This document shows positions 45,991 through 64,000 of a DNA stretch of 64,000 nt, one piece after another; position 1 is the stretch's first letter, and each line of letters begins with the position of its first letter. Source of the DNA: Dipteris shenzhenensis (Eukaryota). A program made the position numbers and the translations under genes. The notes below the pieces were generated by a model that was given only the letters and a program-made list of their open reading frames with translations, made no database searches and was not told the origin of the DNA. The stretch lies in the NCBI GenBank assembly GCA_047967505.1, contig CM106538.1. One strand, written 5' to 3'.

Positions 45991-46439
45991 TGGGAAAAGT
46001 ACCTCTCATTAGGGGAGAATTGGGATTGCCAAAGGGCCACCAATTAGTGTTTCCTAATTTCAAGGGATTAGTGAGGTATTTGAGGTGTACCAATGGGAGT
46101 GCTCCTTTTTGTGGGGCAATGCCATGTTGAGGTGGAGGGTGGGCAGACTTGCAAATGGCCCCTATTGGCTACTCCTCTTACACCAGGGACCACTCAAACC
46201 ATTCCCCCCCCCTCAACCCATGCTTGACCCTTCTCCCATATGCACCTCCCCCAAACAAACCTACAAGTCATTCAAGAGGTGGTGGGCCCTTCTAGGTGAA
46301 TTTTTCCCTGCTCTCAACTTGTTACAAGCCTGCCCCCTCCTCTTCTCTGGTCCAGCTCCATTCTCCCTCCATTTTTCAAACATGGGAACTCATTTGTCAT
46401 ATTCTCTTCCCCCTCTTTCTCTAGTCCACTGTCTTTCTC

Positions 46440-46670
46440 CCTCTCTAGCACCTCCTGTAGCAGCTGCTCATTCTCTCTCCATTCCTAGCTACAACAACAG
46501 CTGCTCATCCCCCTTTGCTCTTTCTCCCTCCATTCCTAGCTACATTATCTCCTGTAGTGGCTACTCATCCCCCTCTGCTCTTTCTCCCTCCATTCCTAGC
46601 TACAACACCTCCTGGAGTAGCTGCTCATCCCCCTCTGCTCTTTCTCCCTCATTCCTAGCTACAGCACTTG
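46440..46670. repeat. ~60-bp tandem repeat x3-4
   Basis: CTCATCCCCCTCTGCTCTTTCTCCCTCCATTCCTAGCTAC at ~46504, 46564 and 46624. Confidence 0.85.
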
Positions 46671-46796
46671 GAGCTTCTTTCAACCTTCAGTTGCACCCTC
46701 TATACCTTTTCCCTCTCTCTTCCTCTATCGGAGCAACTCTCTCCCTCCAAGCTGCACTTTCTAGTCCACTATTACTGTTGTGACCTCTGTACAAGC

Positions 46797-47855
46797 ATGG
46801 TGAGGAGACCATACATGTACTCTGTGTCCCACAGTAGCAAGAATGCACTGAGTGAATGGGTGCCTTGCACCTACAGCTTGAATGATTGGATAGTCATGAG
46901 AGGATCTTCCAAGGGTCCACATAAGCTTCCCAAGAGCAAAAGAGGTGATCTTTTGCATGAATGGAAGGGCTGCATCATGAAGTTCAAGATTGGGAAGAAA
47001 GGATGGCTTGCAAAGGTGCAACACATCTACATGGGGAAGGACATGCACCTTCCTTCGTCAAGCAATCAATCGACAATACCATCGCATTGTAAGTCTGTAT
47101 TTTGTGTAAGATTTTGAAGTGTAATGAGTCAGTTTGAAATTGCCTTTTGAAATAGAACCAGTGTAATGAGTCAGTTTGAAATTGTATTTTGAAATAGCAC
47201 TTATGCATAGCAGATGTATTTCCTTCAGACTTTGAGGAGTGGGAACCAATCGAGTGCTTCTTAGGTAAGTTTACTGCCATTCATGAGGAATTAGGAAGGC
47301 AAATGCATGCTAGAGAGAGATCCTCTGCTTTGAAACAGAGAAATATCTATTGGTATAATGCCAAGTACATTACTCCAAGGACGGCATCAAGCTATGGCCA
47401 TCTTCAATGCATTGCAACACCACAACTTAAAGACATGGATTGTAGCATGGTGGACACAAGAACAGTGCAATCATACAAGGAAAAGATTGCAAAGGATGTG
47501 GGCATGGCCATGAAGTTTACATTTGGCTCTAAATGGGTAAGGTTGTCTTGGTTTATGCCTTTGCACATTTTTGCTTCTTGTTTTCAGAATATCCAGATGC
47601 ACAAAACAAAAACCATGTGGTCATGCAAGTGCCTACATGAGAATGCCCTTGAGGAATTGCTTGGGGTGAATTGGGGAAGCAGGTCAGGTGAACAAAAGGG
47701 TGATCTATTTCAATGCCATGTATGTAAGGACAATGTGGTTGTCAAGTACCACATCTCCTACCAAATGTTATATTTTGCTTTCCAATATAGGCACTAGAAG
47801 AAAACATGTGGCAATTGGCTCCCCCTTGACTCTACCGATGATGATAATACAGGAG
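46797..47855 (+). CDS. BAH-like domain protein (2 or more exons; possibly a pseudogene)
   Basis: Exon 46797-47088 splices in frame to 47214 (NAGNAG acceptor). Product: 'YSLNDWIVMR..WKGCIMKF..AKVQHIY..YVFPSDFEEWEPIECFLGKF..IYWYNAKY', matching the BAH strand pattern. TAG at 47795 may be premature. Confidence 0.5.
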
Positions 47856-49111
47856 TAAGTTTATGTCTTTGTTCTCATTTAGGAGATGTCAAGAATGTAA
47901 CTATCACATTGGACTCTCAGGGACATGCGGGAAGACCTATTGGTCATGGAGGATGGCATGTCTAAGTCCTTTCACTTTACCTTAAATGGTGGAAAGGTAG
48001 GAAAGCATGCAAAGAAGCTCATCATGCAATATTGAAGATTATAAACAATGTGGGTTGGAACAATTATGGATTTTGACATTTTTCAATTAATAGTGGTGCA
48101 ATTAATTTTGATGTTTTGAATGGTTTTGTTTCATGTCAATGTCAAGTTTTGCCCAAAAAATTTATAATTCTTTTTATTATTTATATTTAGAACATTTGGG
48201 TATATATGGGTTATAAAGTTACTTTAGTTTCAAAGTTTCACTATCATAGCCATAGTTCTCCTAGCTATCAAACTACCATGGATTCTGCTAGGTCTGCCTT
48301 CCACAATTTCATCTCTTGTACTCCATTAATTGATAGAGAGGTGGAGTTATTTCAAGTCTTTGATAAGAGCATAGATGTCCTAGGCACCTACTTGGGAGCC
48401 CGAGACAATTTTAAAGACCTCATCAAGTACATGCAAGACCACATCGTGAGTTTTGCATATCAACTTGATGAGTTTACAAAAAGATGGGTCCCAATTGATT
48501 ATTTGAAGTACTTGTTCAATCAAGAACCTAGGTTCGTGCAGTGTTTAGATCGCTTTGAGCCCAACCCACACCCCTAGGTTTTAGGGAGGTGGACACCGAT
48601 GACCTCCTAGCATGTGGAGTCATCCGAAACATAGGAAATAAGTTCCTATCCTAGGAAATGACCTTTATTTTCCTTCTCTAGGAGGGACAAATGGAAGAGG
48701 AGGCCTCGACCTCAAGCCCTGACCTTGCCCCTACCCTTTCCGATCCTCTTATTTCTATAGATGAGCCCAACATCTACAATGAAGAGCCCATAGATGAAGA
48801 AGCTAAGGAGCGGGAAGCTACATTGGCCCTGGAAGTGCTCCAACGACCTCTTGAACCCCATTCTACTTCTCAATTTCCATCTACCTTGGGCAGCACCTCT
48901 GCTGACCCCGCAACAGTGATATGGTTTCTTGCTCCCCTTCTTGTCGATGGAGAACAATACCTCTTTCTCCATGACATAGAGGTTATGTTTGGTGTCCTGT
49001 GTGGATACGAGGTGGACACGACTATGCAAGAACCTGGGTTTTTGGGAGTAGATGATTCAATAGAAGAGGTTCTTGCTTTAACACTAGCCCAAATCAAAGA
49101 TGCAGAGACAT

Positions 49112-61439: not shown

Positions 61440-61662
61440 TCACCATGGCACAAAAGGCGAATGTGTTCGTCATCGTGAGGGGAGCTCACAAATGCCAAAA
61501 CCCACTATGGTGTGTATGAGGCCTATTTGACCAAGACCTACTATGGCACATATGAGGCCTACTTGACTTGGTCAAACAGGACTCATACGTACCATAGCGG
61601 GTTTTGGCATTTTTGAGCTCCTCGCACGATGCCAAACACATTTGCCTTCTGTGCCACGGTGA
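61440..61662. repeat. Long inverted repeat (~95-bp arms, ~30-nt spacer)
   Basis: TCACCATGGCACAAAAGGC...TTTGACCAAG pairs with CTTGGTCAAA...GCCTTCTGTGCCACGGTGA. Confidence 0.92.
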
Positions 61663-61843
61663 AAAAACATCATTTGACCACTCAAATTTACACTAAACTT
61701 GCATAAACTGATGGAAAGCATCACGTAACATGTATAATAACATGGGAATAGTAATAGAACATAAAAATATTTTTATTCATTGGCCTCAAAGGGCAGAGAT
61801 TTACAAAATGATTTAGGTTACACCAAATGAACCTAAACAACAT

Positions 61844-62960
61844 CTAGGGCCTAAGGGAGGGATCAGAGTGGATGCGCTTGGTGAGTGCACGGTCCTTGTC
61901 CATCACTGTTACTCTTTTCGCATGGATAGCACATAAGTTCATGTCTTTAAAAAGACCTACTGTCATCTACTCCATTGCCTCTTGAATTGCTCCCATAGCA
62001 CCTGAAGTGAAGCACACATCATCCTTCTAATGATGTGCTATTTCACGTACAACATGCTGGAAGGGTGCAAGAGGAATGAGATTGTCCATAGTGGTCCGGA
62101 ACTTGTGGATCTCTTGAAGTTCCTTCATGCCTGATTTTTTGCACCTTTTGATCTTTGGGGGACCTTGCACTAGCCTCTGGACATGGCCCCATGGCTGCTT
62201 GTTTGCTTTGAACTTCTTTCGCATCTCCTCCCTTGCAACTGCCTCTCCAGACTCCTCTTCCTATGTCTGGTGGGTCCTTTGAGGTGGCTTGTCATGCCTA
62301 GGGGTCTTCTTTGTCCTTGTCTCTTTTCCTTTTCATGAGGCTATGAGAGAGCAAAAGCTAAGGCTCTTGCTCAGCTCATACTAGAGGCTCCTCATATGTG
62401 ATAATATCGAGGCACAAAGGGTTGATGGTGCTCTTCCGTGCGGTCTACTTAGTTGGAGGATTAGGGCCAAGGTTCATTATATATGTGAGGCCACCAAATA
62501 CTTCCTCTTGTTGTGGCCCCTTTAATCTCTCCATCTCCTCTCTTTGCCTTTCTTGCTACCCTTGTTGATCTAGATGCTCCATGCCAGGACCCCACAAAGG
62601 AGGGAGGGGTAGTTGATCATGATTGATTGGACTATTTTGCCCCTCTTGGGAGACCTCTCTACTTCCACGGTTAGTTGTGTGGAAGGACTGAGAGGACCCC
62701 TGATTGTGCTTGGATCCTTCATCATGTTGGGATTCCTCATGGTGCTGAGATCCCTGGGATCCCCCATGAGAGTCGGATGGTGGAGACTCATGTTGCTTGG
62801 ACTCCTGATGATGAGAACTGCCTTCAGATCCCTATTGATCATTTCCCTCTTGGCCACTGGGGCTTGCAGTGTGTTCAAAGGCCATGGAGTTATGAGGAGG
62901 AGAGCGGGTAGCATCTAAACGGCGTCCAATGGGTCTAGCAGTTTGTTTAACTTGTGCCAT
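61844..62960 (-). pseudogene. Divergent histone-H3-like gene with a long N-terminal extension
   Basis: Starts MAQVKQTAR at 62960. In-frame 'TK*TARKST' at 62453-62427. C-terminal fold '[57 protein letters not shown]'. TATA-like element at ~63003-63010 (-). Intronless, with stops and one frameshift. Confidence 0.88.
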
Positions 62961-64000
62961 AGAAAGAGCATAGAAATGAGGGATTTTAGGGTTTTGAAGT
63001 GCTTTATATAGTCTTTTTTAAAGCACTTTAGGGTTTTTCTTTTAAATTAGGGTTTTTTGAGTGCACCCCCTCCCCCCCAGTCTTTTATCCCAATTCGGTA
63101 ATACTTAATCTTCACCACCCTCCCTCCCAACCCACTCACCCCTCTGCCCTGCCATGTCGCACATGCAATTCTATAATTTCCAAACAAATTTGTGAATTTT
63201 GGAATCTATAATTGACTCAAAATAGTGTTAACCTTATTCATCAAACATTTTACATTTGGGGCTCTCTTAGGACCCAACACTTCCCCTGTCTGACTCTATG
63301 TTGCAACCAAAGCACAACCCCTTGGCTCCCTATTGAGGACTTCTAAGTAGCACATCTCCTTGTCTTCTTGACATGTTGAAGCGCTTTTATGAGACCTCTA
63401 CCTTATCGCGATTGAGAATCCTGGCCTCTAGACATCTATAAAACTAGTTGAACATTTTGTGTACTGCATTGCTTTGCACAATACCACCCCTATGCCTTGT
63501 ATTCTTGAAGTATGCTGCCTTTGCTCTGTAGTGTGATTTCTCCATTCCTTGAGTATTCCAAATGGACAGAGGGCCCCATTACTCCACAAACCATGGTGCA
63601 TGTGCGTAAAGAATATGCTGTAAAGAAAAACATTGTATTAGAAACATAAACTGACTCAAGTTTAAAGCACAAAATTTCAATCTAACGAGGATTACCATAT
63701 AATGTGTAATATTTGACTCCCCCCATGCTTCTACCATCAAAGATATGAATTATCCCAACGCTGTCCTGAATCTCTCATAATAAAGCTCATCTATTTGACC
63801 TTGTCTAAGCAACTTTATAAATGCATCAAGCTTTGTCCATAGTTTTGCTCTCAAAGTAGCAATTCATGGATGTGAAGCTTGATTTGTAGTGCACTCACAC
63901 AAATCTTTTCAGTACTCCCAACCTAGGGTGCTTTGAGCTAATGTATGTTTTTCTTTATCAACATGGTGGTTGGACAAGAACCTCCTTGCCTTTCCTCCAC

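Follow-up and report, generated by a model that had tools for sequence, protein, structure and literature searches.

A Gypsy-type long terminal repeat (LTR) retrotransposon in a 64,000-nucleotide (nt) stretch of Dipteris shenzhenensis DNA (assembly GCA_047967505.1, contig CM106538.1; the whole stretch is referred to here as the window) separates two genes whose proximity raises a question: why should a gene for a putative histone reader and a gene resembling histone H3 lie side by side in a eukaryotic, plant-like window with many retrotransposons and satellites? Without the Gypsy element the two are convergent and ~3.8 kb apart. A first-pass annotation regarded the ~6 kb left when the retrotransposon is removed as part of a mobile element not yet described, with a reader and a histone mimic as its cargo. 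Its gene identities, a BAH-type reader and an H3-derived gene, prove right, but the mobility and the pairing that it proposed find no support. The explanation that we hold with moderate confidence is that two independently decayed chromatin genes lie in silenced DNA and have been split by an ordinary Gypsy insertion. Feature coordinates are collected in Table 1.

That the two flanks were formerly contiguous is directly demonstrated by a contig of public run X1 (record 3, 410 nt), in which positions 48852–49107 are followed by 60585–60714, with four letters fitting either side. The contiguity of 46000–49111 and 60589–63300, as first proposed, is also indicated by the ACAT target-site duplication (TSD) and by the 191-codon stop-free frame that runs across the junction when the flanks are joined. 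Of 500 Markov shuffles of the joined sequence, 2.8% produced a frame as long as 192 codons; the joined 5.8 kb contains five frames of at least 128 codons, all on the plus strand, where 0.84 are expected.

The inserted element has the hallmarks of Ty3/Gypsy, with two LTRs with TG..CA ends, a TSD, and Gypsy-type gag and reverse transcriptase/RNase H. Its termini are TGTGAC...GTCACA, the LTRs (49114–51008 and 58682–60584) are 96.5% identical over 1906 columns, and its minus-strand frames contain the Pfam domains zf-CCHC, RVT_1, RT_RNaseH_2 and RVT_3/RNase_H. The LTR distance (K = 0.0355) corresponds to an insertion age of ~1.4, 2.5 or 8 million years at assumed substitution rates of 1.3e-8, 7e-9 and 2.2e-9 respectively; the insertion is thus probably 1.4–8 million years old, depending on the rate. 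Contigs of both X1 and X2 join position 51761 to 54792, showing that copies of the Gypsy element without the nested Copia-like element exist. In its LTR pair, TG..CA ends, TSD and second small LTR element inside, the arrangement resembles the nested LTR insertions of large plant genomes, and there is nothing unusual about it; the TSD here is 4 bp, and a 5-bp TSD is commoner for LTR retrotransposons.

To the left of the insertion, frames 46659–47117 and 47198–47797 are two exons of one gene that is homologous to a family with a predicted BAH fold, which we refer to as the BAH-UBL family for its BAH and ubiquitin-like (UBL) parts. Exon 1 is 72%, 42% and 41% identical by tblastn to the relatives P0166, P0007 and P0304 respectively. 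One X1 contig (record 1) spans 46042–47088 and ends where exon 1 ends, and X1 and X3 each have one contig that joins 47088 to 47214, an exact skip of 125 nt. The spliced junction ..PSHYVFPSDFEEW agrees with P0182 and P0304, and the spliced reading ..IPSHYVFPSDFEEW.. likewise matches P0182 and P0304, an annotated Ceratopteris protein, at the junction. The gene without its intron occurs in a run guessed to be DNA (X3) and in another guessed to be RNA, so the family may include processed retrocopies.

The family is sizeable and diverse, and no Pfam model covers it. Frame 47198–47797 is 61% identical to the 292-residue relative P0001, itself in a cluster of 61 sequences at 90% identity, and an exhaustive HMMER search with P0001 recovered 165 clusters (at 50% identity) with E<=1e-3, including 77 with E<=1e-10 and 11 with E<=1e-30. 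Longer members (P0007, P0014, P0018, P0015 and P0304) have N-terminal parts that match window frame 46659–47117. Names were attached to five of the 30 clusters looked up, all of them hypothetical proteins of Ceratopteris richardii, Adiantum nelumboides or A. capillus-veneris. Named members from ferns include KP509_28G029800, KP509_16G083500, KP509_23G004300, KP509_10G084800, GOP47_0024093 and GOP47_0023452, and KAH7388597.1 is an example of an intact one. Ten long members contain no Pfam domain, apart from a RadA-like zinc ribbon in P0014. This last protein (594 residues, in a cluster of 29; a relative outside the window) has the zinc ribbon and a long N-terminal leader before its BAH-UBL part, and could have arisen by fusion or represent a chimeric transcript. 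Two to five contigs per position cover the BAH part in X1 and X2, and the summed depth in X5 is near 1000 over 46902–47535. Within the window, 183 family proteins gave no match outside the BAH locus.

The copy in the window is dead. P0001 aligns by tblastn to 47207–47908 with 58% identity over 234 columns, and a stop stands where relatives have the W of YRRWKK. This TAG (47795–47797) is preceded by a C, and a change of CTGG to CTAG at a CHG site would explain it. Homology resumes in the next frame at 47904–48020, reflecting a true frameshift, and the TGA at 48033–48035 ends the frame before the C-terminal strand of the family. There is consequently no intact frame for a BAH protein at this locus, and its relatives are whole under the standard genetic code.

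The fold of the family was evaluated with an AlphaFold model of the relative P0007, and not of the window copy, using an alignment of 52 sequences (A1); P0007 is 34% identical to P0001 and 36–42% identical to the window exons, which correspond to model residues 13–107 and 130–336. The model has a predicted local distance difference test (pLDDT) score of 86.4 and a predicted template modelling (pTM) score of 0.77, and is poor only in the part corresponding to a retained intron; a single-sequence AlphaFold model of P0001 (pLDDT 37.5) is of no use. Foldseek comparison of the P0007 model to the Protein Data Bank (PDB) gave BAH-containing entries in all 37 rows shown (E 6e-7 to 1.5e-4), including Ash1L, DNMT1, PBRM1, MTA1, SHL, EBS, ORC1b, TNRC18, BAHCC1, Sir3 and Rsc2. 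When the Foldseek list was aligned with VIA-align, BAH was present in 50/50 rows, the best being EBS (5z8n_B; Z 14.6, root-mean-square deviation [rmsd] 2.9 Å, 128 residues, model residues 10–198). In a search of 48,161 chains that did not depend on Foldseek, rows 1–19 were BAH (Z 8.4–14.4), and rows 20–50 were mostly ubiquitin-like folds matching model residues 338–412 with middling scores (Z 6.3–7.1). We conclude that members of the family are predicted to have a BAH fold at the N terminus and a ubiquitin-like domain at the C terminus, separated by a beta-rich part.

Sequence searches are less revealing. Pfam BAH (PF01426) was found at E<=1 in none of ten window open reading frames and in only one of the 52 family members (E 0.017), a phmmer search of the PDB with member P0092 gave no BAH chain, and profile A1 gave only weak matches to polyubiquitin among PDB sequences (E 0.0086). 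The model thus matches solved BAH domains and the sequences stay below the PF01426 gathering score. The term BAH-like, as originally applied to this gene, is therefore apt at the level of the predicted fold even though Pfam finds no BAH domain in the window frames.

Among the solved structures, the model superposes on the BAH domains of EBS, SHL, ORC1b and AIPP3 (5z8n, 5znr, 5hh7 and 7cce) with Z 13.1–14.6 and rmsd 2.4–3.3 Å over 124–138 aligned residues with 13–24% identity; according to their PDB entry titles, all four are bound to H3 peptides. Unlike these proteins, the BAH-UBL family lacks a PHD, TFIIS or RRM partner and has the beta-rich middle part and the C-terminal ubiquitin-like domain instead, and unlike them the window copy is a pseudogene.

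To the right of the insertion lies what, judged by its sequence, is a genuine H3-derived gene that was once coding. Minus-strand positions 62137–61862 align to plant H3.3 with 54% identity over 92 residues and no gap (E 1.2e-24). Reading through its two TAGs as X, the fold scores 81 bits against Pfam Histone (PF00125; cut-off 26.4), and among PDB sequences it matches H3.3 and H3.1 at E ~5e-24, the best 60 rows all being forms of H3. Two putative tail motifs, MAQVKQTAR (ATG at 62960) and TK*TARKST (62453–62427), are 7/9 and 8/9 identical to H3 and in the same frame; each alone has a BLAST E value of 11, their weight coming from position and frame, and the remainder of the tail is unrecognizable. 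Joining the two exons through the putative intron gives a frame of 331 codons that is free of frameshifts, TAA and TGA yet contains five TAGs (codons 43, 135, 172, 271 and 291) before a terminal TAG. A TAA- and TGA-free frame of this kind has a chance probability of 0.00025 in Markov-2 simulations, and the probability that all five stops are TAG is 0.007–0.013 under a one-step mutation model. Upstream, the only three matches to the telobox AAACCCTAA in the entire window fall within 62986–63055, where 0.61 would be expected in the window and 2/100 shuffles reach three, together with the TATA-type sequence TATATAAAG; telobox and TATA-type motifs mark plant promoters. The designation as an H3 mimic is thus correct as to its derivation, given the Pfam and PDB matches, but the gene is broken, with a complete histone fold and no open frame.

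The gene resembles canonical and replacement H3 (H3.1/H3.3) in its gap-free fold over residues 43–134, an identical 11-residue block and putative ARTKQTARKS-type tail motifs. It differs from them in its 193-codon first exon, in which two tail motifs are set apart by a His/Ser/Gln-rich stretch, in ~46% divergence of the fold, and in its five TAGs. We also considered whether it is a CENH3. A longer loop 1 is a hallmark of CENH3, and this identity is ruled out by the gap-free alignment to H3.3/H3.1 (residues 41–133), the top PDB rows being H3.3, H3.1 and H3mm. A word-seeded search of 5.8 billion proteins with the fold as query gave 555 candidates, 540 of them with E<=1e-5, and no relative closer than generic H3 was seen among the best 120 of these 540 matches (42–56% identity; animals, plants, fungi and protists).

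The sequence composition of the locus suggests how the genes were inactivated. The observed/expected (o/e) ratio of CpG is 0.15 over 46000–49111 (0.02 in 46001–47000), 0.14 and 0.21 in the BAH and H3-like genes respectively, compared with 0.42 in the window and 0.67 in the region of a ClpB-like gene; CWG is also depleted (o/e 0.67–0.70 at the locus versus 1.07 in the ClpB-like region), and TG+CA is in excess. The all-TAG stops of the H3-like gene, together with the marked depletion of CpG and CWG, fit deamination of methylated cytosines, and we favour C-to-T changes of this type in silenced chromatin as the probable source of the all-TAG pattern.

We propose that old, methylated, repeat-embedded plant DNA carried two chromatin-protein genes facing each other, probably of independent origin. 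The BAH-UBL copy was inactivated by the conversion of a TGG codon to TAG, together with a frameshift and a premature TGA. The H3-variant gene, once coding, with 331 codons, its own TATA and telobox promoter, two tail motifs and a complete fold, was killed by five nonsense changes, all to TAG, and a Gypsy-type LTR retrotransposon inserted between the two. Several observations weigh against this scenario. A change of CAG to TAG fits the tail motif TK*TARKST, where H3 has Q, but does not cover all five stops, as codons 271 and 291 sit where H3 has F and Y. Purely neutral decay would hardly be expected to leave 92 codons without an indel at ~46% amino acid divergence; this, and the lack of indels over all 331 codons, suggests that the gene was for a time a selected, divergent H3 variant before point mutations inactivated it. 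The BAH family looks multi-copy, with its 61-member cluster at 90% identity, the multiple contigs and the depth in X5, which fits amplification by a mobile process. Finally, if the two genes were unrelated, one would not readily expect a gene of histone-reader type to lie within ~4 kb of one derived from a histone.

The alternative that survives best, although we consider it rather unlikely, is that the ~6-kb stretch comes from inside a non-autonomous mobile element (a Helitron, Pack-type DNA transposon or similar) that captured and co-amplified the BAH-UBL and H3 genes, with the window showing one dead copy. This would accommodate the apparent multiplicity of the BAH family, the form lacking the 125-nt intron in X3, which with its guessed DNA origin makes processed copies possible, and the low CpG content of the whole stretch, like that of the surrounding transposons. 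There are also precedents: in Dothideomycete fungi a hAT transposon has captured histone H3 and amplified it (PMC6710886), and gene duplication and pseudogenization driven by transposons are reported in gymnosperm giga-genomes (PMC13477047). The fungal example resembles the locus described here in that H3-derived sequence lies in repeat-rich DNA and is killed by C-to-T-type point mutation and not by indels; it has hundreds of copies inside a defined transposon with a transposase, and repeat-induced point mutation (RIP) as the mutator. In contrast, the window shows one copy, with no termini and no transposase, in a plant host, and its H3-like gene keeps its own promoter.

Searches for the components of such an element were negative. 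No inverted termini were found between 34001–49111 and 60589–64000 (the best match is 20 nt, E 0.012), although any ends could lie outside the window. Six-frame Pfam scans of 44401–49111 and 60589–64000 revealed no transposase or Rep/helicase domain, only Copia remnants and Histone, in agreement with the initial observation that no transposase or proven termini are visible. There is no second copy of the cassette within the 64 kb, and metagenome contigs searched with P0014 and the window frame gave no confirmed related locus. Both genes retain promoter-like sequence and introns, and look like whole genes and not captured fragments. The H3-like gene, unlike the BAH gene, has no close relative in the proteins searched (best 120 matches). 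The hints of multiplicity concern the BAH part, and none of them ties it to the H3-like gene. None of the contigs listed spans both genes, and only X2 contigs cover the H3-like part, X1 having no cover over 61484–63385, although contig gaps are not evidence of absence. Thus the proposal of mobile cargo with a working reader/mimic pair is not borne out, as there are no termini, no transposase and no second copy in the window and both genes are inactivated; mobility itself is unproven, not refuted.

A different possibility, which seems to us doubtful, is that the locus is a decayed duplicate of a non-mobile host module in which the BAH-UBL reader was once co-regulated with the double-tail H3 variant, its ligand or decoy. 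The two genes are neighbours in convergent orientation, the closest structural matches of the BAH model (EBS, SHL, ORC1b and AIPP3) were solved with H3 peptides, and the H3-like frame was clearly coding once; nonetheless, this is a single instance in which both copies are dead, and no intact H3 relative of this kind is present among the best 120 of the 540 matches. It is similarly improbable, in our estimation, that the fern BAH-UBL reader family was amplified jointly with the double-tail H3 variant, by a transposon or by segmental duplication, as a reader-plus-ligand or reader-plus-decoy module, and that the locus is a methylated dead copy of it. The suggestion that TAG is reassigned or read through here, such that the H3-like gene is intact and expressed, can be set aside almost entirely. 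In its favour, TAG accounts for all five premature stops in the H3-like gene and for the single nonsense codon in the BAH homology, its count of five is what chance would give (5.3) although the frame has neither TAA nor TGA, and a TAG occupies the Q position of TKQTARKST. Against it, seven other window frames contain no TAG (725, 655, 584, 518, 410, 399 and 277 codons), relatives in the BAH family are intact when read with the standard code, the BAH copy carries a frameshift and a TGA as well, and Q would be placed at two buried aromatic positions of the histone fold.

Two further features lie between the genes. The hairpin noted in the first-pass annotation is real, with arms that are 86% complementary (ΔG −145 kcal/mol, z −17.6). 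No other copy of the arm is present in the window and there is no evident target-site duplication, and a scan of 44000–64000 identified no Rfam family; the hairpin may be a foldback or miniature inverted-repeat transposable element (MITE)-like insertion, or a local inverted duplication. The frames 48191–48577 and 48682–49111/60589–60734 have no Pfam match, and frame 48682–49116 has no relative among proteins of 253–2000 residues. Matches of 48191–48577 and 48682–49110 to DUF7025 and BAF250_C in the ESM Atlas had recognition scores of 1827 and 1847, below 2300, and are regarded as chance. An intron at 48446–48681 (GTGAGT..AG) would join the 48191–48577 and 48682–49111 frames in phase, but is unsupported, as X1 contig record 2 runs through it. 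The lengths of these unassigned frames are mildly improbable by chance, and a lost gene is possible.

Table 1. Features at and around the BAH-UBL and H3-like genes. Positions are window coordinates.
Feature	Position	Strand	Basis
Copia-type pol remnant, left neighbour of the cassette	45426–45934	+	Pfam Pol_BBD (E 2e-7) and gag_pre-integrs
CT-rich upstream/5' region of the BAH gene; 51/60-nt tandem copies at 46464–46619	46042–46796	+	Repeat families D8 and D9
BAH-UBL pseudogene exon 1 (ATG 46797; first half of predicted BAH domain)	46797–47088	+	Sequence reading; tblastn
BAH-UBL intron, 125 nt, GTAAGT...GCAG, frame-preserving	47089–47213	+	Contig joints; spliced reading matches relatives
BAH-UBL pseudogene exon 2 (in-frame TAG 47795–47797, frameshift near 47904, early TGA 48033–48035)	47214–48035	+	tblastn with P0001; codons read
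128-residue frame (48191–48577) and left part of 191-residue frame (48682–49111)	48191–49111	+	Open reading frame reading
Target-site duplication ACAT	Left copy 49108–49111, right copy 60585–60588		Read at both element ends
Gypsy-type LTR retrotransposon, 11,473 bp, LTRs ~1.9 kb	49112–60584	-	LTR pair, TSD, Pfam domains
Nested small Copia-like LTR element, 3 kb, gag only, 349-bp LTRs 99% identical	51767–54792	-	Inside the Gypsy element
Right part of the Gypsy-split 191-residue frame	60589–60734	+	Frame across junction
Inverted repeat/hairpin; 96-nt arms 61440–61535 and 61567–61662, 31-nt spacer	61440–61662		~180 bp past the stop codon of the H3-like gene
H3-like gene exon 2, with the histone fold; codons 271 and 291 are TAG; terminal TAG 61844–61846	61844–62260	-	Pfam Histone E 1.1e-22; PDB H3
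H3-like gene proposed intron, 121 nt, GTATGA...CATAG	62261–62381	-	Inferred, not observed; joins exons in frame
H3-like gene exon 1: 193 codons, MAQVKQTAR at start, His/Ser/Gln-rich stretch, TK*TARKST near end, three in-frame TAGs	62382–62960	-	Sequence reading
Promoter-like stretch with three AAACCCTAA motifs and TATATAAAG (63002–63010)	62986–63055	-	Motif count; TATA read in sequence

Elsewhere in the window, a ClpB/Hsp100-type AAA+ gene exon is located at 12158–12907 (minus strand; AAA_2, E 1.5e-67) in the sole part with near-normal CpG. Two consecutive long stop-free frames (584 and 410 residues) at 36306–39329 (plus strand) have no Pfam domain and no PDB sequence match, and could represent an uncharacterized transposon protein or gene. 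A 655-residue stop-free frame at 23690–25657 (minus strand), also without Pfam or PDB sequence matches, adjoins a CACTA-type DUF4218 frame at 21613–22335. The block at 30000–34000 is G-rich (GC 0.57–0.63, reaching 0.76 per kb; GC skew +0.6 to +0.7) and contains many overlapping minus-strand frames. Satellite-like sequences include a ladder with register shifts of ~180 bp over 4.3 kb (25778–30079), two related arrays 12 kb apart (4300–6150 and 16400–18300), and a 148-bp array (43930–44443).

Three things are new here: the BAH-UBL family, the H3 variant with its double tail, and decay through TAG alone. In the portions of the literature available to us, we found no description of a family with the BAH plus ubiquitin-like architecture, nor of such an H3 variant. 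The first is an unnamed, sizeable family in which a predicted domain of the BAH histone-reader type is fused to a ubiquitin-like domain, and the named members that we noticed are hypothetical proteins of ferns only. The second is an unusual form of H3, in which the tail motif occurs twice along a long first exon. The indel-free, TAG-only inactivation of the H3-like gene is a clean example of what may be methylation-driven point decay in plants, comparable to RIP in fungi. Should fern genomes show the pairing of BAH and H3 genes repeatedly, this would point to a reader-ligand module.

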